Shown here: positions 9,578 to 43,730 of the stretch, piece by piece
Numbering within the stretch: the stretch's first letter is position 1
Layout of the letters: every line of letters starts with the position of its first letter
Virus record (IMG/VR): IMGVR_UViG_3300005294_000003
Span: 1 to 45,309 of that record
DNA from: a virus
Length of the DNA stretch: 45,309 nucleotides
Direction: 5' to 3' (one strand)
Notes under the pieces: generated by a model
Seen by the model: only the letters and a program-made list of their open reading frames with translations
What the model was told of the DNA's origin: nothing
Database searches by the model: none
Translations under genes and position numbers: made by a program

Positions 9578-9692
9578 CTCTTAGTGTGTGAATGGTTGAA
9601 TGCGCCGCTGATAACATTCGTGGGCGTGACTTAAATAAGTTCCACCTAACACACTAAGAAACCCGCTGGCATACCGGGTAATGTATGCCATA

Positions 9693-9758: not shown

Positions 9759-9801
9759 ATTAAACACATCGTTTCACAATTTTTGGTGGGAGGGCAACAC
9801 A

Positions 9802-9939
9802 ATGTCTGATGATGACGACCATGTAGAATATCAACCAGAGTTTGTTGGTCCTTGCACTTGTGACCATGATACTGATGATCATGGATGGAGCGAATGCAAT
9901 ATCGAAGGTTGTAAGTGTGAGGCTTTTTGGTCAGAATAA
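9802..9939 (+). CDS. Small acidic Cys-rich protein (45 aa)
   Basis: GGGAGGG SD 8 nt upstream; MSDDDDHVEYQPEFVGPCTCDHDTDDHGWSECNIEGCKCEAFWSE. Confidence 0.45.
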   Translation: MSDDDDHVEYQPEFVGPCTCDHDTDDHGWSECNIEGCKCEAFWSE

Positions 9940-10033
9940 GACTAACCTAGCAAGGACCGTGCCAGCCTAGACGGGCCTCCGGCCCTCGCGGCTGGGCGCC
10001 CTAAGTGCCTGCCAAGGCAGCCTAAAATAGCCC

Positions 10034-10062
10034 TTGACACGCCCAGCCTAACGTGTTACTCT
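10034..10062 (+). promoter_or_regulatory. Sigma70-type early promoter P2
   Basis: TTGACA (10034-10039), 17-nt spacer, TACTCT (10057-10062); shares gcc(c)TTGACACG context with P1. Confidence 0.55.
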
Positions 10063-10081
10063 CCTGCCTGGAGCCAGAAAA

Positions 10082-10375
10082 ATGCAAGACGACAGCGCCA
10101 CTGACGTTAGACTTCAAAAGGCTCTACAAACTGTAAAACTCTTATGTGACGAACGCGACAGCGCCCGTCGCACCCTAGACTACCTAGAAGACCGAATCCG
10201 CGAAGCGTGGAAGCTAGTGCCTCATATGGCGGTGCGCCAGGAAAAGCCCTGCCGTAAATGTCAACGGCCCACAATGGAAACGTTTGGAGGCACGGCAATG
10301 TGTCGTAAACATATTGCCAAGGATAACGATATGGCATCTATCCTTGAAAGACTGATCTACGACGATGGAAACTAA
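10082..10375 (+). CDS. Hypothetical early protein with CxxC...C..H motif (97 aa)
   Basis: GGAG SD; CRKCQRPTMETFGGTAMCRKH. Confidence 0.55.
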   Translation: MQDDSATDVRLQKALQTVKLLCDERDSARRTLDYLEDRIREAWKLVPHMAVRQEKPCRKCQRPTMETFGGTAMCRKHIAKDNDMASILERLIYDDGN

Positions 10376-10562
10376 GTTTACTCGCAGAGCGGGCCGTTGT
10401 GGCTACCGCTTTGACTCTGCCATTAAACGGCAGTGCAAGGCTAAAACACGGAAGTTGATTCAGTTACAAGATAACAAAATTAAGAATGGTTTAACAGTGT
10501 ATGAGATCAAATGGCAACACCGTTGCCGTAACCATGACCACGGGAAATTCATAAATGGATGA
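10365..10562 (+). CDS. Hypothetical basic protein (65 aa)
   Basis: ORF overlapping upstream gene by 11 nt. Confidence 0.4.
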   Translation: METKFTRRAGRCGYRFDSAIKRQCKAKTRKLIQLQDNKIKNGLTVYEIKWQHRCRNHDHGKFING

Positions 10563-10731
10563 GTTAGACGACGTACAAGAGGAACGTAAGCCATTCTGGC
10601 GCTGTGAGGAATGTGGTTACGAGTCACATGATAGACCAATGCCAGCAAATCGTGAAGAATTCTATCGTAAAGGTAGGCCCGCAATGTGTCCACGCTGCAA
10701 GAGTGGTGGAATGATGCCGGTGGGTTTTTGA
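10555..10731 (+). CDS. Zinc-ribbon protein (58 aa)
   Basis: CEECGY...CPRCKSGG two CxxC pairs; stop 2 nt before the SNF2 gene start. Confidence 0.45.
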   Translation: MDELDDVQEERKPFWRCEECGYESHDRPMPANREEFYRKGRPAMCPRCKSGGMMPVGF

Positions 10732-10732
10732 A

Positions 10733-18428: not shown

Positions 18429-18602
18429 ATGGCAAATATAGAGTTGGCCGAGGCTCAACTAGCTATCCTTCATAAAGTGAAACGTAGCATAGCACCATTA
18501 TGTGGTGTTTTGCCTTCGGCGAATATGCGTGACAAGGCTCGCAAGATTTATGATATTGCCAAACAGCTTGAAGAAGATATTAAGAAAGCTAATCCTGTTT
18601 GA
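18429..18602 (+). CDS. Hypothetical protein (57 aa from ATG 18429)
   Basis: AAGGA upstream of ATG; stop overlaps the polymerase TTG start (TTTGA). Confidence 0.4.
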   Translation: MANIELAEAQLAILHKVKRSIAPLCGVLPSANMRDKARKIYDIAKQLEEDIKKANPV

Positions 18603-20356
18603 TTTTCACAGACCAAAGAGTTAAAGCCTCCGGCCCACTAAATGCGCAATTAATGGCTATAGGCATGGCCCCGGCCAAATGGGAGTTAGCGGGTGGAAAG
18701 CCATTTAGCGGACCTTCTGGTAAAATATTTGATGAAGCGTTGTGGCAATCCAAGACTCCTCGTGATAAAGTCCGCGTCACTAATCTCGTTAACTTCTATA
18801 TCGACGATAACAATTTATATTCGGTTCCTAAAGAGGTTATGGATGCTGAAAGGGCGCGTGTCTTCGCAGAAATCGACGAAGTTAAACCAAACTGTTTGCT
18901 TATCATGGGCGGTGATACCCTGGACTTACTTACCGCCTCCAGAATCGAAACCTCAAAAAAAGGTAGCATTTATGCGGTTGGGTCTAAGGAAGGAGTGACG
19001 AAATGGCGCGGATCAATCATAACTATTTTAATGCCGTCCGGGAGATTGCAGAAATGCGTAGTGGCAATGCACCCAAGCAATTTTATCCGTGGTCAGTGGA
19101 AATGGCTGCCAATATACAAATACATAGATGTGCCAAGGGCTGTCACACAATCTTCATTTGCAGGCTTGAAGCTAACTCCACGGTCGGCGATAACTGGACC
19201 TTCGTTCCGTCAGGCGCGAGAGTGGCTCTTACATATGTTACAACAGGAATATGTGAGTATAGACTACGAGGGTTGGGAGCACATAACGTGTCTAGGGAGT
19301 GGTTCGACGGCAAACGAGGCATTATGCATACCACTAAACCGTGTTGGAAGCGCTTCTTATTGGGTGATCGCAGAAGAAATAGAATTATGGAAACTGTGGT
19401 CACAGTTATTACAAAGCCACAAGGTTAAAAAGGTTGGGCAAAATGCGTCTTTCGAATACATTAAAAGTTGGCTTTATGGTATTTATCCTACTGAATTTGC
19501 TCTCGATACTCTCTATATGCATCATTGCCTATATCCTGATTTTGGTGGCATTACAGACGAATGGTCTGGTCGTAAACGCGACATTGACAATCCTGGTCAT
19601 GGTCTCGCTTTTATTACTAGCCAATACACTGATCAACATTATTATAAAGATGACGGGCGTAATTGGACGCCTGCTTTAGGCGAAGAAAAATTTTGGCAAT
19701 ATAATTGCCTCGACGTTATGGTAACGTTTGAGGCCGCCATGAAAATGAAACTTGAATTAGAAAAAACTGGTTTATGGAAGACTTACGTGGAGATGTATCA
19801 GGAAGAACTCGAACACAATCTCCGTATGGAATGGAATGGCGTAGCCTTAGACGTTGAACGTCGTCAGGCGGCCGGTGTTACCATGTTAGCTGAGATTGCA
19901 GAAATAAGTCAGGCCATAAAGGCAGAGGTTGGATATGATAGAGTGGTTGCTAAAAGAGATTGGAAAACAGCGAAAGCCCCAGTCGGAGTCTTAAACCTAA
20001 GCTCACCAAAACAGATGCAATATTTTTTGTATGAACAACGAAGGCACAAACCAGTCTATAAAGTGGATAAAAGAACTAAACAACGAAAAATCACAACAGA
20101 CAAAGATGCCTTAAATAGCCTTGCCAGAAAGGACCCGGTGATTTATAAGATTATTAAAATGAAACAGATTCAAGACCTCAAAAATGATATTATAGATCAG
20201 CCGTTAGATGCCGAAGGCAGAATGCATTTCCATGTTAAAACTGGAGGGACAAATGGCACGCGCAAAAGCACGGCGGAAAGCATCCTCGGTAGCGGATTCA
20301 ACGCGCAAAATCTCCCAAGGCAAGGCATCGCAAGATCGCTCTTCCTTCCAAGTTGA
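18599..20356 (+). CDS. DNA polymerase family A, N-terminal fragment: UDG-family-4-like domain + 3'-5' exonuclease + first part of the polymerase domain (585 aa)
   Basis: UDG-like GMAPAKWELAGGKPFSGPSGKIFDEAL and AMHPSNF; exo motifs SIDYEG, GQNASFEY, YNCLDV; ends ...GFNAQNLPRQGIARSLFLPS, just before where motif A should follow. Confidence 0.85.
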   Translation: MIFTDQRVKASGPLNAQLMAIGMAPAKWELAGGKPFSGPSGKIFDEALWQSKTPRDKVRVTNLVNFYIDDNNLYSVPKEVMDAERARVFAEIDEVKPNCLLIMGGDTLDLLTASRIETSKKGSIYAVGSKEGVTKWRGSIITILMPSGRLQKCVVAMHPSNFIRGQWKWLPIYKYIDVPRAVTQSSFAGLKLTPRSAITGPSFRQAREWLLHMLQQEYVSIDYEGWEHITCLGSGSTANEALCIPLNRVGSASYWVIAEEIELWKLWSQLLQSHKVKKVGQNASFEYIKSWLYGIYPTEFALDTLYMHHCLYPDFGGITDEWSGRKRDIDNPGHGLAFITSQYTDQHYYKDDGRNWTPALGEEKFWQYNCLDVMVTFEAAMKMKLELEKTGLWKTYVEMYQEELEHNLRMEWNGVALDVERRQAAGVTMLAEIAEISQAIKAEVGYDRVVAKRDWKTAKAPVGVLNLSSPKQMQYFLYEQRRHKPVYKVDKRTKQRKITTDKDALNSLARKDPVIYKIIKMKQIQDLKNDIIDQPLDAEGRMHFHVKTGGTNGTRKSTAESILGSGFNAQNLPRQGIARSLFLPS

Positions 20357-21209: not shown

Positions 21210-21314
21210 ATGATATGTCTACGCTGTAGATTAGAAGTAATAGATGTTTGTTATAGATGCAAAACGTGCAAGAAATGCCACGATGATTTGGATACGAGGT
21301 TTCCATGTCATTAG
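21210..21314 (+). CDS. Doubtful 34-codon Cys-rich ORF in the gap before the second polymerase fragment
   Basis: MICLRCRLEVIDVCYRCKTCKKCHDDLDTRFPCH; overlaps ATG 21305; could be a relic rather than a gene. Confidence 0.2.
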   Translation: MICLRCRLEVIDVCYRCKTCKKCHDDLDTRFPCH

Positions 21315-22222
21315 CATTACCACGAGTCTGGTTGTTTGCAGACTACAACCAAGCGGAGTCTAGGGTTGTGGCATGGAAAGGCCCGGTCCCTAAACTTAAA
21401 CAACGTTATCAGGAAGGTGTAGATGTCCACTCTTACGTATGTAATCTCATTGCACGTGTCGTTCAAGAGAATAACATTAGCACACCCATCAATCCTGAAA
21501 CTGGAAAACGACTCTTTCGATGGAAAGATCATGGAACTTTTGGAAAGGGAGATGAAGAACGGGAGATTGCCAAACGTGCTGTGCATGCCGGTAATTACGG
21601 AGAAGGAGTTTCTAAATTTGCGTTACGCACTGGATTGGCCGAAGATTCAGCTGCTATCGTCAAAAAGATCTATGAAACTCTCTTCCCAGAAATTAAAACT
21701 AATTACCAAGCCTGGGTCGAGCGGTGCATACGCAAAAACAAAACAATCTGTACGCCCGAACCCGTTAAGTTCCGTAAAATCTTCTACGACATCGTCTCCG
21801 ACGATTTAATGAGACAGGCTTACGCCGCTTATCCACAATATACCATTGGGGCGATGCTCAATAGGACTATCAAAAAGTGTTGTAGAATCTTCATAGAAGA
21901 TACAACGGAATCATTAAAAGACCAATGGAAGGCATGGTACGGTGATGAGAATTGGGATAACTGGCGTCATCTACGTGATAGTGGTCTCCGTACTCCTCAG
22001 GCTATATTGTGGAGCGGGATGGATGTCCGTCTTAATATCCACGACGCTGGCGGTATCAGTATACCTAACGACCCTGATCTTATTCGATGGGCTGCAACAC
22101 GGTGGAAAGAAATAGCAGAAACACCTATCCAAGTCCACGAAAACGAAACGATGATTGTGCCAGTTGACTTCAAAACGGGGGCGACATGGGGTGCCGAGGA
22201 TCAGAAGGATTACAAATTATGA
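21305..22222 (+). CDS. DNA polymerase family A, C-terminal fragment (motifs A, B, C; 305 aa)
   Basis: GAGG SD; LFADYNQAESRV (motif A), RAVHAGNYGEGVSKFA (motif B), IHDAGG (motif C). Confidence 0.85.
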   Translation: MSLALPRVWLFADYNQAESRVVAWKGPVPKLKQRYQEGVDVHSYVCNLIARVVQENNISTPINPETGKRLFRWKDHGTFGKGDEEREIAKRAVHAGNYGEGVSKFALRTGLAEDSAAIVKKIYETLFPEIKTNYQAWVERCIRKNKTICTPEPVKFRKIFYDIVSDDLMRQAYAAYPQYTIGAMLNRTIKKCCRIFIEDTTESLKDQWKAWYGDENWDNWRHLRDSGLRTPQAILWSGMDVRLNIHDAGGISIPNDPDLIRWAATRWKEIAETPIQVHENETMIVPVDFKTGATWGAEDQKDYKL

Positions 22223-23679: not shown

Positions 23680-23892
23680 TTATTGTACAGTTGGTCCCTG
23701 ACTTGGGAGTTGTGTTGCTTGCACTCTTTGATTAACTTCTGCCAATTGGATTGACAATGTATCCAAAACTGCCTTACGTTGTTCAGGCGTCAGCGATGGA
23801 TCTTGCTGAACCCGATCAACAACATCCATAACTGCCTTGATGAGACCCGGTAGCAATGGAATTAGAGAAACGGCCAGAGGCACCATAGCCAT
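23680..23892 (-). CDS. Membrane-anchored small protein, last gene of lysis cassette (70 aa)
   Basis: MAMVPLAVSLIPLLPGLIKAV hydrophobic N-terminus; TAATG overlap with lipoprotein gene. Confidence 0.5.
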   Translation of the reverse strand: MAMVPLAVSLIPLLPGLIKAVMDVVDRVQQDPSLTPEQRKAVLDTLSIQLAEVNQRVQATQLPSQGPTVQ

Positions 23893-24272
23893 TACTTAGT
23901 CTCCTCTGTAAACACAACGTAAGCATTAACAGCCATGCTGCTAAGTTCTGTTGCCATCAATGTAACAACCTCTCTCATCTTCTTTTCAACAGCAGCATCG
24001 TTAGCCTTGCGGGCGGCCTCCCACAACTGAATTGCAAGTGGATAACTCTTTTGGAACTTCTGACCAAACGAACGATACTTAGCGCAATTATCTGGCTTAA
24101 TCTGTCCACTATTGCATCCCTGAACATACACTGCCGAAACTGCAACAAACTCTTCGCCAAGAGCCTTAAGACCCTCGCCAGTAACTGCAAGTCCACTATC
24201 ACCAGTCCCAATACCTAGACTAGCGCAACCTGCCAGTAGAATAGCAATAGTTAGTATGTATAGCTTACGCAT
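23892..24272 (-). CDS. Lipoprotein (126 aa), outer-membrane spanin candidate
   Basis: MRKLYILTIAILLAGCAS: signal peptide with LAGC lipobox. Confidence 0.6.
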   Translation of the reverse strand: MRKLYILTIAILLAGCASLGIGTGDSGLAVTGEGLKALGEEFVAVSAVYVQGCNSGQIKPDNCAKYRSFGQKFQKSYPLAIQLWEAARKANDAAVEKKMREVVTLMATELSSMAVNAYVVFTEETK

Positions 24273-24273
24273 T

Positions 24274-24426
24274 CTAAAGTCTCCCCATTAGAAAGAGAAT
24301 TAGTAGCACAACCAGCATAAGACCTACAGCGCCACCTCCTCCCCATCTTAAATCCCCACCCCAATGATAACCACCGAACCCTCCTAGTAGCAGCACAACT
24401 AGAATGATAATCAGAATGGTACTCAT
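24274..24426 (-). CDS. Gly-rich two-TM micro-protein (50 aa), holin candidate
   Basis: MSTILIIILVVLLLGGFGGYHWGGDLRWGGGGAVGLMLVVLLILFLMGRL; starts right after the upstream stop; below track cutoff. Confidence 0.45.
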   Translation of the reverse strand: MSTILIIILVVLLLGGFGGYHWGGDLRWGGGGAVGLMLVVLLILFLMGRL

Positions 24427-24819
24427 TTATTTATCTCCTTTCTGTTTTACACCAGAATCTACTATGTTTTGCTTCTTAACATGTTCTTCATACATATTTC
24501 TAGCACGCTTGGCGCCAGCTATATCTTCTGGAAGCTTTGTTGTCGCTGCCTTAAATTCATACAAATCAGAAGCTAGTTTCAACTGTACACCCATATTAGA
24601 ATTAACCAACGTATGAGTATCAATTCCAACCTTCTGAATCTCATCTATCTTAGTATTATTTTTCTCAGTTGCATTTACAAGAGCAACCTTTGCATCCTCA
24701 CTATTCTGTAATGCCTTAGTTTGTTTCTTGTTAATCATTGCCAACAAAATAGGATTCAAGGCAGTGATAAGTGTAACCAATCCACCAATTATGGTTAAAA
24801 CTATCTCTACCTTTGTCAT
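24427..24819 (-). CDS. N-terminally anchored coiled protein (130 aa), i-spanin or holin-like
   Basis: VEIVLTIIGGLVTLITALNPILLAMI TM segment followed by charged helical region; ATGA overlap with endolysin gene. Confidence 0.5.
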   Translation of the reverse strand: MTKVEIVLTIIGGLVTLITALNPILLAMINKKQTKALQNSEDAKVALVNATEKNNTKIDEIQKVGIDTHTLVNSNMGVQLKLASDLYEFKAATTKLPEDIAGAKRARNMYEEHVKKQNIVDSGVKQKGDK

Positions 24820-25256
24820 CCCGCCCTCAATATATTTAGAAATTCACTGCTAAAGGCTTCGTAAATGCCCTGTTTGTTACGCCACCAACGTTTACCCAGA
24901 TGAGGCTGGTCCCGGCCTAATTTCCGCAAATCCACATGTAAACCTGGCTGATTCCAGAAAGGGTAGACGCCAATACCATTCCAAGGGTACCTTTCGACAA
25001 ACAACCACTGGTCAACCAAAGGCATTCCAACAACATGAAAATCAACGCCAGTAGCAAACTCCCTAGCGTCAGCGTAGTGACTGGACTCTGTGATATGGCC
25101 TTTGTCATCCCAAGCCACATGTATTTGAATGGGTTTGTTAATCGCATCTCTCATTTCATCCATTAACATGACTACGTCCCAACTGATTTTATCTGGATCT
25201 TTAACCCATTCCTCACGCTTAAAATGTCTTATAGTTGACCAATCTCTAATAGTCAT
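24816..25256 (-). CDS. Peptidase M15-family zinc peptidoglycan peptidase (endolysin) (146 aa)
   Basis: SSHYADAREFATGVDFHV and NGIGVYPFWNQPGLHVDL match the H..D...H metal-site pattern of M15/DUF882 peptidases. Confidence 0.7.
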   Translation of the reverse strand: MTIRDWSTIRHFKREEWVKDPDKISWDVVMLMDEMRDAINKPIQIHVAWDDKGHITESSHYADAREFATGVDFHVVGMPLVDQWLFVERYPWNGIGVYPFWNQPGLHVDLRKLGRDQPHLGKRWWRNKQGIYEAFSSEFLNILRAG

Positions 25257-33603: not shown

Positions 33604-34182
33604 TTAACGGCTCCTTACTACAAATTTGGCATAGCCTTCATTACCTCTAGCATCTAAATTATTACCCAATGAAAATACATTCATGTGTTTGAAGATTTTA
33701 GTATACCACCATTCTTGATTTTTAACAGTCATATGAAGCGTTTCACCTATTTCTCTACCACAATAATCTTCAAACATGGCTATTTGTAGATAACCACCTT
33801 TGCGCGTAGTTTGTGCTATGCTTCGTAATGCATCATCAATTTTCTCTTCTGGTATATGTTCAAGTACGTCAACACAATAGACCCAATCCCATTGCAAACC
33901 AGTCTTAAACAATTCCCAAATATTTGCTGTAATAACAGGTAAATCTTCAACATCGACTGCTTTAGTACAAAAGTCCAGCAAAACTACTTTCAAACCACGG
34001 GCCGCGAGCGCCGCCCCCGCCCGTCCTGTACCACAACCTAAATCAACAAGTGTATCACCAAGCTTCCAGGCGCAATGCTTAAGAAAATTATCAATGGCGT
34101 TTTCACCAGGTGACCATTGCCTATAACTTTGTTTATCCCACATCTTATTATATTTCTGTAGCTCTATTTCATGTAAACTCAT
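33604..34182 (-). CDS. Class I SAM-dependent methyltransferase (192 aa)
   Basis: Motif I VDLGCGTGRAGAALA, acidic loop VVLLDF, post-I CVDVLEHIP; no DPPY/NPPY or cytosine-5 motifs. Confidence 0.8.
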   Translation of the reverse strand: MSLHEIELQKYNKMWDKQSYRQWSPGENAIDNFLKHCAWKLGDTLVDLGCGTGRAGAALAARGLKVVLLDFCTKAVDVEDLPVITANIWELFKTGLQWDWVYCVDVLEHIPEEKIDDALRSIAQTTRKGGYLQIAMFEDYCGREIGETLHMTVKNQEWWYTKIFKHMNVFSLGNNLDARGNEGYAKFVVRSR

Positions 34183-34484
34183 CGTATCTCCAATGTCATT
34201 GGTGTTGCTGCTTCTATGCCAGCCAATCTTATGTTGTTGTATTGATCTGTAGTTATTAAAAGACTAGTATGTGCTTGTTCAACCAATGCTTGCACAACGT
34301 CCCAACTACCGTCACGTAACGACCATAAAAACAAAGGCATCGCCGTCAGCAATGTATTTAGAGTTAGAGGGTCTGCTGCAAAAATGTTTTTAAGTAAACG
34401 CTCAAACGTTACCTCTGGTTTTGGTATTATAGTTGTGCTAAGATGTCTAGGACTACCCATTTCTATCGTTGAAGAACCAACCAA
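34179..34484 (-). CDS. Hypothetical protein (101 aa)
   Basis: ORF between tail fibre and methyltransferase genes, overlaps both. Confidence 0.45.
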   Translation of the reverse strand: MVGSSTIEMGSPRHLSTTIIPKPEVTFERLLKNIFAADPLTLNTLLTAMPLFLWSLRDGSWDVVQALVEQAHTSLLITTDQYNNIRLAGIEAATPMTLEIR

Positions 34485-35928
34485 GTGTTACAATACGCAC
34501 CGGGTTATCAACCCCGGCCCTGTATCTAAATTGTCTAGATGTATCAAGTCTAATTCTAGCTTGAGAGCCACTTCGCGTACCGCCATTACCTGTTGTAAAC
34601 AATGGCGCCACTGTATCACTAGGAGCCATGTCAACTGTTGCCAATGAACTAAGATAGACATAGGTAGCATTACCAGCAAAAGCATTAACAAGTGCAGTTA
34701 ATGCAATACCGGTAGGTGCCCCCAATAATGTTCCAACTTTAGCAAGAATACCAGGTGTAGGATCATTGACACCTAGTAATGGTGTTTTACGTTCGAAAAA
34801 TCCAGTGTCTATATGATGATTTAGTGGTACTATAATACCACCTTCACGTAAGAATACCCATAACATGCGCTTCTTGGTTCCACCATCTGGGAGAGTTGGA
34901 TTTAGTAATTGGCTAAAGCATATGTCGTCAGAACCCCCAGAACGTCTAAACTGGTATCCAAACCAAGTTCCATCAGCTAATGCTTCTGTGGCAATGCGAC
35001 CACCTGCAGCGGAACCTGCGGCCCAAACTGCATCTAATTGTTTAGTCATTGCAGGAGTTACTAACAACACGCGATTTGCAGCTAAAACATCATCGGAAGC
35101 ACATTCACATGCAGTAATGTCAATATCATTGGTTGCATCAGCAGCATTATTTGTAAATTGACCACCATATTTGTAGCCACGTGTACCTGTTGAAGAAATT
35201 GTAAACGGCTGACCAGCGCCACCATCAACAAATGAAATACCAGAACCGGCAGTTACTATACGTTCAGTAGTTAGCTCACCATGTGCTCCAACAACTAAAT
35301 AACTTGCATTATTTGGTGCGGCATCCAAAGCCGCCCGGCCGGTTGAATCTTTAGTTAAACCTATACCATCCCTTAATGCTAATAAACTAGCAGCAGCAAC
35401 GCCTGTACCACCATCTATAATAGGTACGGGGCTAATTAACGTACCAATACTAGTAACAATACCCCATTTAATTTTACCAGAAGGCGCATCATAATATGAA
35501 AAACGTTGGTTAATAGGATCGTCAACTTCAACATTTCTAAATAGAGACTTGTTAGCAAATTTTAAACATCTACCAAAAATCTCCAATGCCATTTGGTTAA
35601 ATTTGGCAACTTTGTCAAAATCTCTATTAAGACGTTCGTGAACTGTAGCTTGTCCTTCATTTGGTGTATAAACACTAAGATTTTGTGCTTTTTGATTTCT
35701 AGTTACAACTATATTAGCATTAATTTCTGGAAATGGTTCTAGGAATATGACATCAAAAGTAGAATTGCCAATACCATCAAGCTCATAATCAATATCAACA
35801 GTTTTAACATCGTCACCTACTTGGACTAGTACCTCGGATTTATCATCAATCTTAAAATCAACAGTGAAAGGCCCCTCGGTCCCATCACCCAAAAGCTCGA
35901 TTCGGCCGTCATTTTCCGCAATGGTCAT
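34453..35928 (-). CDS. Tail fibre / receptor-binding protein (491 aa)
   Basis: N-terminal GDGTEGPFTVDFKIDDKSEVLV...VDIDYEL pattern and IDGGTGVAAASLLALRDGIGL motif common in phage fibres. Confidence 0.6.
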   Translation of the reverse strand: MTIAENDGRIELLGDGTEGPFTVDFKIDDKSEVLVQVGDDVKTVDIDYELDGIGNSTFDVIFLEPFPEINANIVVTRNQKAQNLSVYTPNEGQATVHERLNRDFDKVAKFNQMALEIFGRCLKFANKSLFRNVEVDDPINQRFSYYDAPSGKIKWGIVTSIGTLISPVPIIDGGTGVAAASLLALRDGIGLTKDSTGRAALDAAPNNASYLVVGAHGELTTERIVTAGSGISFVDGGAGQPFTISSTGTRGYKYGGQFTNNAADATNDIDITACECASDDVLAANRVLLVTPAMTKQLDAVWAAGSAAGGRIATEALADGTWFGYQFRRSGGSDDICFSQLLNPTLPDGGTKKRMLWVFLREGGIIVPLNHHIDTGFFERKTPLLGVNDPTPGILAKVGTLLGAPTGIALTALVNAFAGNATYVYLSSLATVDMAPSDTVAPLFTTGNGGTRSGSQARIRLDTSRQFRYRAGVDNPVRIVTLGWFFNDRNG

Positions 35929-36200
35929 GGTTCAACCCTCAATGAACAACCTTTACCAATATGTGGCATTATGACAAGATCGTCAACGACCGAGCCATGA
36001 GCACATGCACCAAGACCAGTTACTTTCTGTGTTATTAAATCAATTAGCATTATAGACAAACCTGGATACCTTTCCTTATAAACTCTACAACGCGAAGCCC
36101 CAGGCGACCCAGGTATGCCAACTATTTCCAAGTTATTGCAACGCATACCATTTGGCATACAACACAAACCACATTGATTACATGTTCCAACAAGCTTCAA
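35925..36200 (-). CDS. YkgJ/UPF0153-type CxxCxxCC metal-cluster protein (91 aa)
   Basis: CNQCGLCC followed by CNNL...SRCRVYKERYPG, the two signature blocks of the family. Confidence 0.55.
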   Translation of the reverse strand: MKLVGTCNQCGLCCMPNGMRCNNLEIVGIPGSPGASRCRVYKERYPGLSIMLIDLITQKVTGLGACAHGSVVDDLVIMPHIGKGCSLRVEP

Positions 36201-36559
36201 TTCAAAATGCTCCCTGTTTTCTTGCTATCAACTGGTTGTGGCATAGCTGGCTGTGAGAAAACAATAGGAGGAGGCGCTGGGTTCTCAACACCACAAAATG
36301 ATGCTGTTGGTATAGATCCCGTTGTGTTCTTACTTACAATACGATAACGAACACTACCAATAGGCGTTGTTTTGTCTTCATATGAACAAATAAGGCCGAT
36401 GCATGTGACATCGACACCGATTGTAGTCCATGGTGCGTTGTCGATCGAACGTTGAATATCATAACTGACGGCGGTTGATGTTGGTGACCATTCGATTGTA
36501 AACGCGTTTGCTACGGTCGGTATCAGTAACATGGCAAGGATTAGTATTCTCATTGTCAT
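36197..36559 (-). CDS. Secreted Fn3/Ig-like protein (120 aa)
   Basis: Signal peptide MTMRILILAMLLIPTVANA; FTIEWSPTSTAVSYDIQRSIDNAPWTTIG looks Fn3-like. Confidence 0.5.
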   Translation of the reverse strand: MTMRILILAMLLIPTVANAFTIEWSPTSTAVSYDIQRSIDNAPWTTIGVDVTCIGLICSYEDKTTPIGSVRYRIVSKNTTGSIPTASFCGVENPAPPPIVFSQPAMPQPVDSKKTGSILN

Positions 36560-36562
36560 CTC

Positions 36563-37297
36563 CTAGTCGATCATTGTAGTACCGAAGCCACCACCAATAA
36601 CACCACCACCAATTAATACTTCTGTGACAGCAACAGCGATAGCACTAGAGCTAGCAGATGCTTGCGTCCAACCTGCTGCAACGTCGGAAGATGCGATGGT
36701 GTCATATTTATAAACTGCTCCAACAGGAGGATTTGTAAATAAAACTTCTGCCGTCGGAACACTCCAACCTGCTGTCGGTGTTATATTACCTGCGCCAGTA
36801 ATATTTGTTACAAATCCAATAGCAACAAAAGCAGTTCGACCGGCAAGAGCCATCGTTACTGATGGATTAGCACCAGTACCATTAATAGTTGTATCAACAT
36901 CAACATATTCTGTATTACGCGCTGACGACAAGGCTAGAACCGTAACACTTTTATTAGCACTTCCAGTTACATTGACTACAACCGTTTGTAAACCAGTTGG
37001 TATGTTTGATCCAAGGAAATATTTGTAAATACAGCGTTGTGATGCCATACAAACAGGCGAACCTGCCGCCGCAACCATAATAACGCCGCCATAAGTCGGT
37101 GTACTTACCTGACTTACACCCGAAGCAGAGTCTTGCAAAACCCATAAAAGAATAGCACCAGGCGTGCATGATGGCGTAAATGAAAACGAAAAATTACCCG
37201 TGCTATTAGCAGGCGTATTACCATTACAATACGCGACAGTACCGAAGGCAGGTGCTGCCAGTAATAGCAATAGAATTGTAAATAATAATTTAATCAA
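36563..37297 (-). CDS. Secreted beta-rich protein (244 aa)
   Basis: Signal peptide MIKLLFTILLLLLAAPAFG; Gly-rich C-terminus LIGGGVIGGGFG. Confidence 0.5.
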   Translation of the reverse strand: MIKLLFTILLLLLAAPAFGTVAYCNGNTPANSTGNFSFSFTPSCTPGAILLWVLQDSASGVSQVSTPTYGGVIMVAAAGSPVCMASQRCIYKYFLGSNIPTGLQTVVVNVTGSANKSVTVLALSSARNTEYVDVDTTINGTGANPSVTMALAGRTAFVAIGFVTNITGAGNITPTAGWSVPTAEVLFTNPPVGAVYKYDTIASSDVAAGWTQASASSSAIAVAVTEVLIGGGVIGGGFGTTMID

Positions 37298-39528
37298 TGA
37301 ATTCTCCCTCTATGCCCTACACCAACGATCGGTGAGTCTGGTGGATCACCACTCAAATTGCCACCACCAAAATTATCGCCTTGTGCGGCGCCACCTAAAC
37401 CAATACCAATAAATCCGCCATTAGGTGCGTTTGTAATCGGAGCTTGTCCTATTCGATAACAGATTCCATTGCTGGCTCTACAATATATTAATGACGCCAA
37501 TCCATTATCGTTGTCGTTATATCGTCCACCAAATTTATCACCAACCGCCATATCCCAACCAAGATTAACAGGAGCCAATGGCTCTGAATAAATACCATCA
37601 ATACGTCTAGCAATACGGCAAGTATCATTATTAACACCTGTTACTCTAGTACAAGCAAAAAATACACGATTATTCTGATCAACACCAAGAAACTGTGCTT
37701 GATACCAGTTTCCATCCTCTGCAACTAATGTTGCAATATCGTAGTAGACTTCTTGTTTTTGATCGAAATCAGTAATATATCGTGCAACATGTGTATTTGC
37801 GTCGACAAGACCGGGCGTTGCTTTATTACTAGATATAACAACGCCGCTACCAACAACACTAACAAAATTAGGTATAACACCGTCGGCCCCTGTAAATGTT
37901 GAAAGTAATGGCGTAGTAAATCCTGCGTCTTCTGGGAATGGTTCAATCGCACCTTGTAGACATTGTGGTGGTATTGCTCCACCTAGAGCTTGAATATCTG
38001 CGGTAACGTCTGCAATAGGACGTGCTAATGGAGGACCACTACAATTGACACATGGATTTCCATTTGATCCAGCGGTGGCTGTAAACGAGGTTCCAAAAGC
38101 GCGACCAGCCGTAGTTGTTGCATCTTTAATACGTTGATTCATAGGCCATGGCCATAATGGTACCGTGCTAGGTGTCGTGCCTCCTGGTGTCCAACGAAAA
38201 CATAAATTACCACCTGTAGTGCTAGTCCATGGACTCTGTGCTGACGCCTGTAATCCTGCAATACTACTTGCTGCTTGTAGATCAGTTACGACCCAAGGTG
38301 TCGCAGTTACCGCATCACCTGCACCACGTACTGATGTTGCATGTGTTAAAGTGACATCAGATATTTGTGTTGTAAAAACAAATCCCCAAATATCATTAAA
38401 GTCTGGATTGGACGGATGTACTAGTACCCATGCATCCTCTATATGCATCCCAATAAGACGGTGACCTCCAGACGATACATGAAAGACAGAACCTTTACCA
38501 AATAATTGATCACCACTAAATCGCTCTGTTGCGTTTAGATATCCTAAACTTCCATAGACTCTAGAATTCATTACCGTAGGAGGTGGATTTCCCGCAGTAG
38601 GCGGGTCCGTTGGTCTAGCACGTAGTCGATAAAAGCCATCGATACAGAATGGTGTAGAAACTATACCCCAACCAGGACAATTATCATTGTCGGTTGATGA
38701 AGAATTAATGGCTGTTCCTACGGAATTTGTAACGTTCCAAGACGCAGGATAAGATGCCTCCGACCACGTAATGAGACAATTTTCACAACGATGATTTGGA
38801 GTACCACCATATCCTGCTTGAATGCACTCTTTCTGCGCGGTGTTGCTTGATCCACCTTCGTTTCGACACCAGACTCGTCGTAAAGTTAATCCAATACTAC
38901 CAGCAGTACCACTACCGCCATAATGATGAACAGTGATACCCGAAGTACCAAAAAATGCGGAATCCTCTATAAGATTTGCAGGACCCTCACGGCCATTTAC
39001 GTTATTAATAAAAATAGCTGTACCCTTGCTAAATTCTCCGTCCCAGGCTACAACGCGACGAATAATATTACCAGCTGATCTATAAAATTGAATTACTTCA
39101 CGTGTACCTTGTTTTGCATTAAAACCTTCAAGAACCCAATAATCATTACTATGTGGTACGCTATTACGTATACCACCAAGATTAACGGGGCGGCGCGTAA
39201 ATTGACCATCAATAGTAACTAATCCATCATTCAATGCGCGAATAGTAATTGGTAACGATGCAGTACCACTCAAATTTACAGGACCTAAATCACCAGGATT
39301 AATTACGTAATCTGCACCTTGATAAGTACCATTCATCAAACATAACGTCTTGCCAGGCATTTGTGATGCAGCAACAATTGTATAGAATTTGGTTATTGTG
39401 ATTGGATTATTTGTGTCTAATCCACTATTAGTAGACAATCCTGTAGGGGATGCATAATAGTTACAAGCTTGCGCCCAAGCATTTGATGCAAATAGTAGAA
39501 CGAAGACTAACGATAAAAGAAATTGCAT
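37294..39528 (-). CDS. Secreted right-handed beta-helix (DUF1565/pectate-lyase-like) protein (744 aa)
   Basis: Signal peptide MQFLLSLVFVLLFASNAWA; YYASPTGLSTNSGLDTNNPITI...GKTLCLMNGTYQG is the usual start of beta-helix polysaccharide-active enzymes. Confidence 0.6.
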   Translation of the reverse strand: MQFLLSLVFVLLFASNAWAQACNYYASPTGLSTNSGLDTNNPITITKFYTIVAASQMPGKTLCLMNGTYQGADYVINPGDLGPVNLSGTASLPITIRALNDGLVTIDGQFTRRPVNLGGIRNSVPHSNDYWVLEGFNAKQGTREVIQFYRSAGNIIRRVVAWDGEFSKGTAIFINNVNGREGPANLIEDSAFFGTSGITVHHYGGSGTAGSIGLTLRRVWCRNEGGSSNTAQKECIQAGYGGTPNHRCENCLITWSEASYPASWNVTNSVGTAINSSSTDNDNCPGWGIVSTPFCIDGFYRLRARPTDPPTAGNPPPTVMNSRVYGSLGYLNATERFSGDQLFGKGSVFHVSSGGHRLIGMHIEDAWVLVHPSNPDFNDIWGFVFTTQISDVTLTHATSVRGAGDAVTATPWVVTDLQAASSIAGLQASAQSPWTSTTGGNLCFRWTPGGTTPSTVPLWPWPMNQRIKDATTTAGRAFGTSFTATAGSNGNPCVNCSGPPLARPIADVTADIQALGGAIPPQCLQGAIEPFPEDAGFTTPLLSTFTGADGVIPNFVSVVGSGVVISSNKATPGLVDANTHVARYITDFDQKQEVYYDIATLVAEDGNWYQAQFLGVDQNNRVFFACTRVTGVNNDTCRIARRIDGIYSEPLAPVNLGWDMAVGDKFGGRYNDNDNGLASLIYCRASNGICYRIGQAPITNAPNGGFIGIGLGGAAQGDNFGGGNLSGDPPDSPIVGVGHRGRIH

Positions 39529-40499
39529 AGAACCTCCCCGGTTGCTACTGCTGCGGTACTATTGTTAGCCAACGCTGTTGTGAAACGACTACCAATTGAT
39601 GTTGCAAATGCGATACCATCTGGAGGAATTGGTAATGCGTGACCACCACCAGTAGTAGAACCAGGAATTAGAAATTTAATAACGGGTGTCTCGGCCGAGG
39701 TTGGTGTGTCGTCATTATATATTTTGATATATGCCACAGCCGCATTGATATTCGTACAATCTCCGCCATACAATACGCCAGCACTAGCTTTTATAGATGC
39801 TGCATCCTGGTTGGCAGCAGCAGCACTCTCCACGACTTTTGCTGACATTCCATTTTCAGGAATATAAACAGCAATAGCACCCGTCGTTAGATCAACACGA
39901 CATGGAACCTGCCGCCCCTCCGTCCATGATGGATTGCTAGCAGTTGCTTTACAAATTAAGACTGGTTGTTTGGCAGTAGAATTTGTAGAATCATCCGCTG
40001 AATTACCTAGAACAATCCAAGGACTTGTTTGTTGAGTTACACCAACGTTGCCAGTAATACCGACGGTACCTGAGATAACACCGCTAGAACCACCACTACC
40101 ACCCCCACCAAATTGTGTCGTAAGAATATGAACTGACGCAGTACCTGTTATTGTGTCAGAGCCACGAACTCTAATATTCGTTAAAGCGTTAGTAATAGCC
40201 CATTGACCAGCGACGCCATCAGTAAATGTACCTGTGGCAGAACCACCAATAGAACTACCAGTAATCGAAAACCATGATTGCCTATTGTCAATTGAACCTT
40301 CAAATTGCAGAGGGCCGGTGAATGTACCAGTTATGCTTATAGTAGCATTTGATGCACCGGCAGTGTTTACTTCTACACAAGCAAAAACAACGCAATCATC
40401 ACTATTAGTAGTGATGGTGCCTATATTAGCAGTTACTGCGTCTGCTTGCGCAGGCAACAACAATAAGAACAGAAATAATAAACTAATCAGTCGCATCAT
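39507..40499 (-). CDS. Secreted Gly/Thr/Ser-rich protein (330 aa from ATG 40499)
   Basis: GGAG SD before ATG 40499; signal peptide MMRLISLLFLFLLLLPAQADA; poly-Gly linker GGGGSGGSSG. Confidence 0.5.
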   Translation of the reverse strand: MMRLISLLFLFLLLLPAQADAVTANIGTITTNSDDCVVFACVEVNTAGASNATISITGTFTGPLQFEGSIDNRQSWFSITGSSIGGSATGTFTDGVAGQWAITNALTNIRVRGSDTITGTASVHILTTQFGGGGSGGSSGVISGTVGITGNVGVTQQTSPWIVLGNSADDSTNSTAKQPVLICKATASNPSWTEGRQVPCRVDLTTGAIAVYIPENGMSAKVVESAAAANQDAASIKASAGVLYGGDCTNINAAVAYIKIYNDDTPTSAETPVIKFLIPGSTTGGGHALPIPPDGIAFATSIGSRFTTALANNSTAAVATGEVLCNFFYR

Positions 40500-40674
40500 C
40501 TGTGATCTCCACCCACGCGCCGTAGGCAGGATTGGTTGGCGACATATAGCGTTGGACTCGAACTGCAATGGTACCGTCCATTAAACGGCATGAATGTCCA
40601 TTAATCCAGGTATGATCTTTAACTTTTGCTACAACCCTAGCCTCGGCCGCCGCCATTGTTGCAAACGCCGCCAT
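40483..40674 (-). CDS. Hypothetical protein (63 aa)
   Basis: ORF in operon, overlaps next start by 17 nt. Confidence 0.4.
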   Translation of the reverse strand: MAAFATMAAAEARVVAKVKDHTWINGHSCRLMDGTIAVRVQRYMSPTNPAYGAWVEITDDATD

Positions 40675-40684
40675 TTCTTTCTCC

Positions 40685-41335
40685 TTATACTAGAATGATT
40701 TTAACTCTAGGAACCTCAGTTGGTGCCTCCCGTACAGGAACTACATTGGCCGGGCCTACCGCTTCGCGGCAGCGCACTATTCCAGCGCCTCCAACTTCAA
40801 CAGTCTGAACAGGAACTACATTCCTAATGAAACCTACTAGATAGCGTATAGGAACAACACCAATTGATGAGGCCGGAGGCTCAGCCTCACCACTATCTAT
40901 TAATGCAACTAACACTGCGTCATCTAGTAACTTATTAAGATTAGCTTGCACATCAACTACTGCCGTACCGGAGGCCGTCATATCCTCCAACAACTTATTT
41001 AATGCAGCTTGAACTTCTATTTTAGATACTGCATCTAGAATTATGCTATCTAGTGTTTTAGACATAACTGCTTGGACTTCAACTGCCATTGCTGATGTTA
41101 ACCCAACGCCCTCCAGGGTCTTTGCTAGAATAGCCTGAACCTCAACTTTAGTTGTTGCTACTAAACCAATATCTTCAAGAGTGGCAGTTAAAACTGCTGT
41201 AGTACCGCCAGCAGCAGGCGCAAACGATATTGAGGCAGGGCCACCCCAATAAACCAATGTCCAAGGCTCGGCCGGAGGGCCGAACCCTTGTATAATTGGT
41301 GCCACATCATGTAGTGTCCAGTCGTTAATGGCCAT
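40685..41335 (-). CDS. Repeat-containing protein: five 21-aa repeats plus C-terminal VPIRY domain (216 aa)
   Basis: (V/I)(E/D)VQAxLxK(T/L)L(E/D) recurs at residues 64, 85, 106, 127 (and degenerate at 43); C-terminus paralogous to ORF 42425-42616. Confidence 0.55.
   Translation of the reverse strand: MAINDWTLHDVAPIIQGFGPPAEPWTLVYWGGPASISFAPAAGGTTAVLTATLEDIGLVATTKVEVQAILAKTLEGVGLTSAMAVEVQAVMSKTLDSIILDAVSKIEVQAALNKLLEDMTASGTAVVDVQANLNKLLDDAVLVALIDSGEAEPPASSIGVVPIRYLVGFIRNVVPVQTVEVGGAGIVRCREAVGPANVVPVREAPTEVPRVKIILV
40895..41209. repeat. Five tandem 63-bp (21-codon) repeats inside CDS 40685-41335
   Basis: Protein-level period exactly 21 residues; nucleotide units such as cttattaagattagcttgcacatcaac / cttatttaatgcagcttgaacttctat visible. 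Confidence 0.7.
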
Positions 41336-42018: not shown

Positions 42019-42425
42019 TATGCATTCCCATCTGTCAAGGTGAACCCTGTGACAGTTATAGGTTGGTTAATTTCCACGACAGGATTGGCAACCGTCATGT
42101 CACCGCCACCGCCTGTGATCGTTACCGTACCTTGCATATGTTGTGTAACACCGTCGGTGGCATAGATACGGAAATGACCTATAGTACCGGCAGCGTCAGA
42201 TAACAAATCTTCCCACGTCCCGGCCTTAGCTTTTGAGCCTGCGGCTGCGGCAGCCATCCAATCACTTGGCAAGTTTAGTGTTGCGACTATTGTACCAGAA
42301 TCAGCATCAGTTATTAAGGCTGGGGGAGCCCCGGTCCTTAACTTCAAAATCGCGCTAACGCCAATGACAGACTCTATTGAATCAAGTCTACCATTGCGTA
42401 CCGCCACCGACATCTTGATAGTCAT
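42018..42425 (-). CDS. Hypothetical virion-module protein (135 aa)
   Basis: ORF; pattern LKLRTGAPPALITDADSGTIVATLNLP...GHFRIYATDG seen in small structural proteins of other podoviruses (recollection). Confidence 0.5.
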   Translation of the reverse strand: MTIKMSVAVRNGRLDSIESVIGVSAILKLRTGAPPALITDADSGTIVATLNLPSDWMAAAAAGSKAKAGTWEDLLSDAAGTIGHFRIYATDGVTQHMQGTVTITGGGGDMTVANPVVEINQPITVTGFTLTDGNA

Positions 42426-42616
42426 TATGGAATTATCACTATCAACACTCTAGGAACTTCACTAATTACTTCACGAACAGGTACAACGTGACCAGGGCCG
42501 ACAAAAGCACGGCAAGGAACAATGCCGATGCCACCAACTCCGACTGTCTTGACGGGGACAATGTTGTCATCCAAGCCTTCAACATAACGTATAGGTACAA
42601 TGTTGTTCTCAGCCAT
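42425..42616 (-). CDS. Stand-alone VPIRY-domain protein (63 aa)
   Basis: About 60% identical by eye to the C-terminal 57 aa of ORF 40685-41335. Confidence 0.55.
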   Translation of the reverse strand: MAENNIVPIRYVEGLDDNIVPVKTVGVGGIGIVPCRAFVGPGHVVPVREVISEVPRVLIVIIP

Positions 42617-43095
42617 TATAGTTTGTGCTCTCTCTTGAAGTTATCCAACGCAGCGCTAGCCTTGGCTAGCGCCATTTCCTTCTCTTCAACCTTTTTAACA
42701 AGATCTTTCATTCTGTCATTTAACTCCGCTTCACGCTTCTTGAAATCATTTTCCATCTTTATTGCAGCATCACTAACATTTACTGCCTTCTTTGTCACTT
42801 CTGCGATTTCGGCTTCCGTCTTCTTCCTGGCCTCTTCCGTTTGTTTGCGCAATTGCGTTTTAGTATTGTTAAAATCTATATCCAATTGAGCTTTAGCTTT
42901 TTCAGTAGCTGTAATTTCATTTTTCATTCCATCCAATCGAGCTTTGGCATTTTTAGCAGTATCAACCAATAGCTCAATTTTACGTAATGACATATTTTGA
43001 CGTTCCCAATTAGTCCTCTCCGCTTGCATCTGTCGTAGTGTTGCCAACGCCTCTTCATCTGTCATTACTAAAACACCTATTTGGTCAGCCATCAT
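42616..43095 (-). CDS. Coiled-coil protein (159 aa)
   Basis: Lys/Glu/Ala-rich heptad-like sequence throughout. Confidence 0.5.
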   Translation of the reverse strand: MMADQIGVLVMTDEEALATLRQMQAERTNWERQNMSLRKIELLVDTAKNAKARLDGMKNEITATEKAKAQLDIDFNNTKTQLRKQTEEARKKTEAEIAEVTKKAVNVSDAAIKMENDFKKREAELNDRMKDLVKKVEEKEMALAKASAALDNFKREHKL

Positions 43096-43730
43096 ATCCC
43101 TCCAAAATAGCGGTTAGTCCATCCAGACATACTACGTACTGCTTTCTTAAATGCTGGTACACGTGCCATTTCTCTAGTTAATTGTTCTAGAATACCTTTG
43201 TCACTCCCATTGTTTCCATTGCCATAATGATTACCAGTAGATTCTGCTTCAAAGAATCTACGCATTTGCATACCTGGACATCCCGCCAGAATGATACGTT
43301 CAGCCCCCATAATCCATGCAATTTGCATTGCGAAATAGCCACTCAAAGCCATAACTGGTGTTAAATTCTGCCAATGAAAATCACTGAACGGCTTCGCCTC
43401 ATAGGTATGATAACGAGTAGTCTCACCTCGCGTAGCATGATTCCATCTAACTGTTTTCCAGGCTCCAAGATAGTCAGCATGCAATGAAACCCAATGATCT
43501 AATTTAGGTAAGTACATACCAATGTCGTTTACTGCAAAAATTACTGGATCTTTAGTTTGTTTCATCGCCCGTTCAAGATCGTGAAACACACTAACTGCAT
43601 TACCACAAACGATAACAGTACGGGAATGTAGCGTATCAATGAGTTGAGCCACATTCCCTTGGCCCGCATATCCACGGACTTCCCACGTTGCATTGTGAGT
43701 TCCCATAGATTCTGCGTTTCGTACTGTCAT
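43092..43730 (-). CDS. Rossmann-like DUF115/Maf- or sialyltransferase-like protein (212 aa)
   Basis: RTVIVCGNAVSV...PVIFAVNDIGMYLPKLDHWVSLHADYL...ALSGYFAMQIAWIMGAERIILAGCPG follows the GxGPS / PD..v..D / G.D.. layout of DUF115-type enzymes. Confidence 0.4.
   Translation of the reverse strand: MTVRNAESMGTHNATWEVRGYAGQGNVAQLIDTLHSRTVIVCGNAVSVFHDLERAMKQTKDPVIFAVNDIGMYLPKLDHWVSLHADYLGAWKTVRWNHATRGETTRYHTYEAKPFSDFHWQNLTPVMALSGYFAMQIAWIMGAERIILAGCPGMQMRRFFEAESTGNHYGNGNNGSDKGILEQLTREMARVPAFKKAVRSMSGWTNRYFGGI

Follow-up and report, generated by a model that had tools for sequence, protein, structure and literature searches.

A possible Sec-exported, envelope-directed gene block in the structural operon of an uncultured T7-like podovirus

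Results

Four consecutive late genes with signal-peptide-type N-termini

The IMG/VR record IMGVR_UViG_3300005294_000003, analysed here over its whole 45,309 bp (the window), is the complete 45.3-kb genome of an uncultured, T7-like podovirus, a phage known from metagenomes only. Its minus strand encodes a T7-type tail (tail tubular proteins A and B and internal virion proteins), the major capsid protein, the portal and the terminase, while its plus strand carries the replication genes. Four consecutive genes, SP1 to SP4, occupy the part of the structural operon between the genes for capsid and small virion proteins and that for the tail fibre, and their products all begin with N-termini of the signal-peptide type. 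We consider it about an even proposition that this block is a module of late, non-virion proteins that leave the cytoplasm through Sec and target the envelope or its glycans, both ahead of lysis and in the course of it. The block consists of the following features.

39507..40499, minus strand: SP1, 330 amino acids (aa), two beta-sandwiches joined by a linker
40437..40499, minus strand: predicted SP1 signal peptide, aa 1-21, MMRLISLLFLFLLLLPAQADA followed by VTAN
40110..40382, minus strand: SP1 N-terminal beta-sandwich, aa ~40-130
SP1 aa 132-215, minus strand: Gly-rich linker with an NSTNSTAK...PSWTEG repeat, disordered in the model
39510..39842, minus strand: SP1 C-terminal beta-sandwich, aa ~220-330
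37294..39528, minus strand: SP2, 744 aa, its start overlapping the SP1 stop by 22 nucleotides (nt)
39472..39528, minus strand: predicted SP2 signal peptide, aa 1-19, MQFLLSLVFVLLFASNAWA followed by QACNYYASPTG
37960..39468, minus strand: SP2 right-handed beta-helix, PL6/PL9-like, aa 21-523
37330..37944, minus strand: SP2 C-terminal domain of ~205 aa, aa 529-733, common to few homologues
36563..37297, minus strand: SP3, 244 aa, TTG start
37241..37297, minus strand: predicted SP3 signal peptide, aa 1-19, MIKLLFTILLLLLAAPAFG followed by TVAYC
36605..37234, minus strand: SP3 all-beta domain of ~210 aa, aa 22-231
36197..36559, minus strand: SP4, 120 aa (118 aa from the ATG at 36553), small and beta-rich
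36503..36559, minus strand: predicted SP4 signal peptide, MTMRILILAMLLIPTVANA followed by FTIEW

A preliminary description of this DNA had claimed that four adjacent open reading frames (ORFs) start with canonical signal peptides. All four ORFs are present with the N-termini that it gave, and the claimed anatomy is there apart from the n-region of SP2. Each hydrophobic core is uncharged and 12-15 residues long, too short for a membrane anchor, and leads to a small-x-small site, ADA/V in SP1, AWA/Q in SP2, AFG/T in SP3 and ANA/F in SP4 (the slash marks the predicted cleavage). Three of the four n-regions contain one positive charge (R3 in SP1, K3 in SP3 and R4 in SP4), and that of SP2 (MQ-) contains none. 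Neither a lipobox (L-x-x-C) nor a twin-arginine motif (RRxFL) occurs in any of the four N-termini; the sole lipobox protein of the window is encoded at 23892-24272.

The SP1 start has GGAG 8 nt upstream of its ATG, and a second in-frame ATG at 40496 is the start called in public data (P0096). SP2 is preceded by GGGGAGG, and the TTG of SP3 by GAGGGAG. In SP4 the GGAG abuts the first ATG, and thus the second (36553, MRILIL...) is the more likely start. In-frame alternative starts keep the hydrophobic core.

Signal peptides were called by a heuristic scan of every window ORF of at least 60 aa, together with homology. Besides the four block genes, the scan flagged the lipobox protein, a holin-like membrane ORF (with two alternative starts) and two short, spurious-looking ORFs. 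When five to six flagged genes are placed at random among 55-65, a run of at least four arises with P = 0.0007-0.002. Judged by their sequences, the four N-termini look like real Sec-type signal peptides for signal peptidase I.

SP1 resembles XepA and YomS in fold

The AlphaFold2 model of SP1 comprises a signal helix and two sandwich domains, both with a predicted local distance difference test score (pLDDT) of 80-95. The best Foldseek match to this model was YomS (6i5o; E = 2.4e-6, probability 1.0, template-modelling (TM) score 0.72), and XepA (6i56) also matched at E ~1e-4. An additional 80 uncharacterised phage proteins in BFVD match the SP1 fold. By the fold of its model SP1 is XepA/YomS-like, while it fails the sequence-level family test, PF27453. 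A Pfam scan (E <= 1) of SP1, P0097, P0102, P0104 and P0115 returned no XepA match; weak precomputed PF27453 matches are found on the SP1-family members P0102 and P0115 only; and a PDB sequence-profile search with SP1 did not reach 6i56 or 6i5o. In the related locus L003, the SP1 orthologue P0097 has retained the signal peptide at 49% identity.

XepA is reported to be made late, to be exported past the membrane and not to occur in phage particles (PMC6834076). It is cytotoxic and has been proposed to support lysis, and the same authors also suggest that it binds capsids (PMC6834076). Another paper (PMC8812541) calls it "a protein of unknown function".

SP2 is related to secreted polysaccharide lyases

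Most of the 95 homologues of SP2 are cellular proteins of 450-500 aa, and the majority match the Pel9A-like family PF22842. The signal peptides of these cellular homologues end immediately before a conserved C-x-[YH]-YASPTG motif, precisely the arrangement seen in SP2, and at least 42 of the 95 homologues received a heuristic signal-peptide call. The mature SP2 chain opens at this beta-helix motif, and the family hidden Markov model (HMM) starts at residue 21. SP2 has no N-terminal particle-binding (adaptor) domain and no PHROG tail match.

Against solved lyases, the SP2 family profile matched 1ofl/1dbg (E = 3.4e-7), 7o78 (E = 1.3e-6) and 1ru4 (E = 6.1e-6). These matches to chondroitinase B, Pel9A and PL6 alginate lyases cover ~80 N-terminal positions, the first helix turns only. 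The Pfam Chondroitinas_B model scored SP2 at 14.9 bits, below its cut-off of 24. SP2 keeps 31 of the 31 invariant family positions, including N137, R158, E188, D189, R217, R218, E249 and N250, which we do not equate with catalytic residues because the alignment to solved lyases spans the first helix turns alone. On this sequence evidence SP2 is a distant member of the Pel9A-like/PL6-PL9 beta-helix superfamily, and by its architecture it is not a tailspike. The preliminary description had likened it to DUF1565/pectate-lyase-type beta-helix enzymes; DUF1565 gave no match, Chondroitinas_B being the only Pfam model to score SP2, below its threshold, while the homologues carry PF22842. A pattern scan of viral contigs with SP2 alone found nothing, its patterns being too specific, and an exact-sequence look-up of SP2 returned nothing on record.

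SP3 belongs to a large family and SP4 stands nearly alone

An exhaustive HMMER search recovered 894 relatives of SP3, overturning a word-indexed search in which SP3 had found itself alone and had appeared to be an orphan. Among 150 representatives of this family, 104 have no signal peptide and start at the domain; in at least 27 others the identical "VAFDA" N-terminus directly follows a signal peptide. The AlphaFold2 model of SP3 (pLDDT 90.5) has no significant structural match in the PDB, and the Pfam family DUF4871 scored 24.2 bits, just under its cut-off of 25. A genome scan with a tight alignment of the SP3 family found nine loci in metagenome-assembled genomes (MAGs) of very different phyla, by which no host was identified.

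In MAGs of Paceibacteria, Gallionella and Sulfuritalea (L025, L028, L030 and L032), an SP3-type domain lies near the N-terminus of giant proteins of 1467-2383 aa, of which those in L025, L028 and L032 received a heuristic signal-peptide call and that in L030 did not. Cellular surface proteins thus make use of the domain as well. Two further candidate relationships of SP3 were rejected. The C-terminal extensions that lengthen some bacterial SP2 homologues (P0013, P0056) gave no significant BLASTP match to SP3, and a 470-aa protein of L020 was negative for an SP3-type domain by both BLASTP and the family HMM.

The only similarity found for SP4 is a weak PDB sequence match to 3mpc, an "Fn3-like protein" (E = 0.024), and SP4 has no Pfam (E <= 1), PHROG, NCBIfam or PADLOC match. 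The earlier suggestion that it looks Fn3-like has this one weak match behind it. The similarity of SP4 to a 123-aa signal-peptide protein of L002 was not significant, and we treat the two as analogous only. Likewise, none of SP1, SP2 and SP3 matches PHROGs, NCBIfam or PADLOC.

The block is syntenic in relatives, and signal-peptide runs recur

The preliminary description had proposed a comparison of gene order in related phages, and the block proved syntenic in L003 and L035. L003 encodes orthologues of SP1 and SP2, both with a signal peptide and with the same 22-nt overlap. L035 has, in order, an SP1-like protein, a beta-helix protein with a Tat-like (twin-arginine) motif and an SP3-family protein, directly followed by tail tubular A, and all three carry export signals. 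A third clade member with block parts and export signals, L034, is the same phage as the window from another sample.

The beta-helix ORF of L035 (L035:10493-12496, plus strand) is 667 aa long and has a Cys-rich N-terminal part of ~200 aa, followed by an internal twin-arginine-like motif, DRRTFLRWGLGAGLG...ARAVA/DTFYVATTGSD, and a Beta_helix domain. From its sequence it may represent two genes, or it may have an internal start that would give a Tat-exported beta-helix protein.

Using tail tubular A alignment we retrieved 13 loci, most of them from the clade of the window, across which the interval between capsid and tubular A is hypervariable. Signal-peptide proteins occur in this interval in L010, L013, L014 and L020 and are absent from other members. 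In L014, three plus-strand ORFs of 509, 199 and 511 aa (8464-9993, 9995-10594 and 10612-12147) all match tail tubular A at ~45% identity; this could reflect a domain fused to longer proteins or an artefact of ORF calling.

Runs of signal-peptide proteins were also found in unrelated phage contigs, three consecutive in L004, three in L020 and four in L023, the last including an SP3-family member. Additionally, six of seven proteins encoded directly after a T7-type fibre in L005 have signal peptides. The recurrent runs consist of Cys-rich signal-peptide proteins, among them beta-helix, SP1-family and SP3-family members. In L020 and L023, genes for endolysin, holin and spanin-like proteins come immediately after the run, and L004 and L023 encode integrases. 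The median Cys content is 1.95% in mature signal-peptide proteins and 0.48% in their neighbours (p = 7e-6); the Cys count is even in 17 of 21 of the former. As independent proof of export this enrichment is weakened by an L021 homologue that lacks a signal peptide and has 15 Cys.

The block is integral to the late operon

The genes that flank the block, and the late-operon 3' end, are as follows.

40483..40674, minus strand: 63-aa ORF directly upstream, overlapping the SP1 start by 17 nt; upstream block boundary
35925..36200, minus strand: Cys-rich protein of 91 aa with a CNQCGLCC motif and 8 Cys, without signal peptide
34453..35928, minus strand: tail fibre, 491 aa; T7-type tail-attachment region at the N-terminus, without signal peptide
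23680..25256, minus strand: probable lysis cassette at the late-operon 3' end, ~11 kb from the block

The junctions of the seven genes that run from the 63-aa ORF through the tail fibre are -17, -22, -4, +3, -4 and -4 nt. Promoter-like sites in the block region number 26, against 28.9 expected, and terminator-like sites 11, against 9.4 expected. The GC content of the block (0.42-0.43) matches that of its flanks. Because the genes overlap or abut, show no excess of promoters or terminators and share the base composition of the flanks, we conclude that the block is integral to the late transcript and not a self-contained insert.

The upstream 63-aa ORF is conserved across the clade, with homologues 59-78% identical in L003, L012, L013, L014 and L015, and falls outside the exported set. 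The gene for the Cys-rich protein overlaps both the SP4 stop and the tail-fibre start by 4 nt, and its product has homologues in L002 and L013 (49%) and in L014 (55%). This protein had been called YkgJ-type; that name goes no further than the CNQCGLCC motif, given that Pfam (E <= 0.1) and NCBIfam returned no match. The tail fibre has a PHROG tail fibre match on residues 9-114 and a 45% identical homologue in L003.

The lysis cassette contains ORFs for a 146-aa protein, a 130-aa protein with an N-terminal transmembrane segment and a coiled coil, a 50-aa protein with two transmembrane segments, a 126-aa lipobox protein (LLAGC) and a 70-aa protein with a transmembrane segment. Functions within the cassette were assigned by inspection, Pfam giving weak matches only. 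By eye the 146-aa protein is probably M15-peptidase-like, with no Pfam or NCBIfam match. The 126-aa lipoprotein is large for an o-spanin. The gene content of the cassette indicates that the host is probably diderm.

No tRNA, integrase, repressor or phage RNA polymerase was detected among the genes of the window. Tail tubular B gives a distant tie to pelagiphage-, Ralstonia- and Burkholderia-type podoviruses, with no close annotated phage relative. Megablast of the block and tblastn of SP2 against the annotated phage collection gave no match.

Several observations concern other parts of the genome. Between window positions 7000 and 10000 the GC content is 0.51-0.52, compared with 0.41-0.45 elsewhere, and here the coding strand switches from minus to plus and long ORFs are few; the stretch may be an early or regulatory region or an origin. 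Two separate plus-strand ORFs, 18599-20356 and 21305-22222, both match family A DNA polymerase, and a 186-aa ORF and a MazG-like gene lie between them, so that the polymerase is apparently split.

A 63-aa minus-strand ORF at 42425-42616 is 61% identical to the final 57 residues of a 216-aa ORF (40685-41335, minus strand), with the common motif IVPIRY...VVPVRE..PRV. Proteins of widely differing length (83-470 aa) in L008, L010, L011, L015 and L020 close with this C-terminal domain, which from its distribution looks as if it were a constant anchor for variable N-terminal cargo. A minus-strand gene at 43092-43730 encodes a 212-aa protein with a faint MptE-like/DUF115 match (E = 0.011), found directly after the capsid genes in most of the clade members covered (L003, L010, L012, L013, L015, L016 and L035). 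A SAM-dependent (S-adenosylmethionine-dependent) methyltransferase is encoded between the fibre and tail tubular A (33604-34182, minus strand). Going by their sequences, these two are possible modification enzymes within the structural operon.

Discussion

An exported module that may act on the host envelope

The even weight that we give to a Sec-exported, non-virion module draws on a signal that behaves like a tag at the mature N-terminus, the lack of a particle-binding domain, the secreted cellular relatives of SP2 and the precedent of XepA, besides the run of four signals, their conservation in orthologues, the recurrence of such runs, the Cys content and the embedding in the late operon. 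In each of the three larger families, the point of fusion of the signal peptide is exactly the N-terminus of the signal-peptide-less forms, the pattern expected of a removable targeting tag. A further family, represented by proteins of 389 aa in L005, 383 aa in L020 and 353 aa in L013, is split in the same way between forms with and without a signal.

Under this reading, the four late proteins would be expressed together with the virion genes, carry signals cleavable by signal peptidase I and cross the inner membrane of an infected, probably diderm cell ahead of lysis. SP2 would supply the enzyme, a beta-helix protein resembling polysaccharide lyases and extended by a further C-terminal domain, and SP1 would be a XepA/YomS-like double beta-sandwich protein, while SP3 and SP4 would be small beta-sandwich proteins, probably binding or scaffolding partners. 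The proteins would fold outside the cytoplasm, possibly with disulfide bonds. Their targets would be capsule, exopolysaccharide or lipopolysaccharide-type glycans, or the envelope itself. By stripping or masking receptors and loosening the outer layers, they might help progeny to escape, prevent re-adsorption to debris and hinder late-arriving phages. Lysis would then free the proteins, which would not be stoichiometric virion parts.

The preliminary description had proposed such a module for remodelling envelope or exopolysaccharide, and this proposal survives in part. The conserved signals, the secreted SP2 homologues and the XepA fold speak for it, and signal-peptide-less homologues in structural modules speak against it. 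Superinfection exclusion, its other suggestion, found no specific backing, as there is neither a PADLOC match nor an independent promoter or terminator.

Several findings weigh against an exported, non-virion module. Members of the SP1, SP2 and SP3 families occur without a signal peptide in the structural modules of other podoviruses (L006, L001 and L021). L021 and L001 are related podoviruses that have an SU10-type adaptor; in both, an SP2-family protein starts exactly at the mature motif, and in L021 an SP3-family protein without signal peptide follows one gene later; L006 has an SP1-family protein of this kind. A canonical tail-fibre homologue in L020 (L020:18577-20115, plus strand), 28% identical to the fibre of the window, has a signal-peptide-like extension of 19 residues, MVHVIILCLSLLLASPVLA followed by TVPES, such that residue 2 of the window fibre aligns to its residue 20. 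The start of this gene is preceded by a near-perfect Shine-Dalgarno sequence, TAAGGAGGAtcaATG. Signal-peptide-like N-termini are thus not limited to obvious non-virion proteins. The block itself is flanked by capsid-associated genes on one side and tail genes on the other, with the lysis genes ~11 kb away, and the C-terminal domain of SP1 also caps long, repeat-rich, fibre-like proteins. The only structural homologue of the capsid turret base of HFTV1 (gp30) is XepA, and this base holds a deacetylase-like enzyme. Cys-richness, as the L021 homologue indicates, is partly a family trait. Lastly, the invariant residues of SP2 are not matched to catalytic ones, and export and cleavage, absence from virions, substrate and role are all read from the heuristic and from homology.

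Alternative explanations

Many of the same findings suit a different role, in which the four proteins are exported and fold in the periplasm but bind finished particles at lysis, as turrets, decoration or receptor-binding/depolymerase appendages. We give virion add-ons of this sort a small though appreciable chance. The position of the block, with capsid and small virion genes before it and the fibre after it, fits them, as do the fibre-like proteins that end in the SP1 C-terminal domain, the signal-peptide-less homologues in the structural modules of L021 and L006, and the L020 fibre with its signal-peptide-like N-terminus and strong Shine-Dalgarno sequence. The XepA-like fold forms the turret base of HFTV1 together with a deacetylase-like enzyme, and capsid binding was the suggestion of the XepA authors themselves. 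Fibres and decoration proteins of model phages can join particles in vitro. However, we are not aware of any tailed phage in which parts exported by Sec become attached to the particle, none of the four proteins has an attachment domain or a PHROG structural match, and the block is present in some clade members only, so that it is not essential to the particle. XepA, moreover, was reported absent from particles (PMC6834076).

Stated as a general principle, some tailed phages would route receptor-binding, depolymerase or decoration proteins through Sec, for folding in the oxidising periplasm and for joining the finished particle at lysis. We regard this principle as doubtful. It would explain the toggling between forms with and without a signal, the pairing of a XepA-like protein with a glycan-active enzyme, and the extension of the L020 fibre.

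A chance slightly smaller than that of the add-ons falls to a lysis-assisting module, in which SP1 would depolarise the membrane and SP2 degrade the outer polysaccharide as a further lysis step, rather than to remove receptors or exclude other phages. SP1 has the fold of XepA and YomS, XepA is cytotoxic and has been proposed to support lysis (PMC6834076), and the runs in L020 and L023 adjoin lysis genes. In the window, however, ~11 kb separate the block from the lysis genes, SP1 lacks a sequence-level match to the Pfam XepA model, and related phages without the block presumably still lyse their hosts. The function of XepA is itself unproven (PMC8812541).

It is very unlikely that the four proteins stay in the cytoplasm as conventional virion parts or are soluble enzymes, with hydrophobic N-termini that serve for oligomerisation or for membrane tethering, or that result from mis-assigned starts. 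The block position in the structural operon and the existence of signal-peptide-less homologues would suit this explanation, as would the heuristic nature of the signal calls. Against it, the genes have good ribosome-binding sites and alternative starts that retain the core; cleaved signals typically have such cores of 12-15 residues with an AXA-type site behind them; the signal is fused exactly at the signal-less N-terminus in three larger families; and the signals are conserved in orthologues.

Genes of the moron type for lysogenic conversion or superinfection exclusion, expressed apart from the late operon (like lambda lom and bor, T5 llp, and cor), are a most improbable explanation: signal-peptide proteins amid tail genes are a known moron pattern, and L004 and L023, with similar runs, encode integrases, but the window has no detected integrase or repressor, the block shows no promoter or terminator excess and no PADLOC match, its genes overlap their neighbours, its GC content equals that of the surrounding genome, and the 744-aa enzyme is unlike known exclusion lipoproteins.

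Significance and comparison with known systems

Few phage proteins are known to use host secretion, and these are small: lysis regulators, spanins, exclusion lipoproteins, some endolysins and XepA. In the literature on phage structural proteins with signal peptides, we found no account of multi-gene, Sec-targeted late-operon blocks combining beta-helix and XepA-like proteins. If the block is indeed an exported module, some lytic phages would remodel the host surface from inside before lysis, which would bear on superinfection, on how progeny are released and re-adsorb, and on spread through biofilm or capsule. XepA-like proteins would gain a genomic context beyond Bacillus, and the block would offer a source of naturally secreted polysaccharide-degrading enzymes. 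The three or four families that exist both with and without a signal peptide form a natural comparative experiment on the reasons for which phages export proteins.

The fold of SP1 is shared with XepA (the PBSX "exported protein") and YomS (SP-beta), from prophages of Bacillus subtilis (PDB 6i56, 6ia5 and 6i5o). All are late phage proteins encoded near tail-fibre genes and are built from two beta-sandwiches with a flexible linker. In contrast to XepA and YomS, SP1 has no sequence-level match to the family and has a long, repeat-bearing Gly-rich linker, and its host is probably diderm rather than a Bacillus. XepA lies in the lytic cassette of PBSX, while SP1 is not beside the lysis genes of the window. 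The pentameric dumbbell and the toxicity of XepA are known from experiments, whereas SP1 is known from its sequence and model.

SP2 resembles the PL6/PL9 lyases (chondroitinase B, Pel9A and the PL6 alginate lyases; PF22842, PF14592) in having a signal peptide directly before the helix, although the likeness is confined to the first helix turns and the Pfam score of SP2 is below threshold. Phage depolymerases of capsule and exopolysaccharide are beta-helix enzymes like SP2. However, the characterised ones are tailspikes, which bind the particle through an N-terminal domain and lack a signal peptide; SP2 is the reverse.

The turret of HFTV1 (gp30 base with the deacetylase-like head gp31) pairs a XepA-like fold with a carbohydrate-active enzyme and is encoded with head genes. 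HFTV1 differs in being an archaeal virus whose proteins were seen in the particle, with no signal peptides reported.

Phage proteins that use the host Sec pathway and act in the envelope include signal-peptide endolysins (fOg44), signal-anchor-release (SAR) endolysins, T4 RI, Sp and Imm, spanins and the lipoproteins Llp, Cor and Bor. Like the proteins proposed here to be exported, these are phage-encoded and act on the envelope during infection. They are, however, single, small proteins of lysis control or exclusion, whereas the block comprises four large, beta-rich proteins without homology to them, including an enzyme-like protein of 744 aa.

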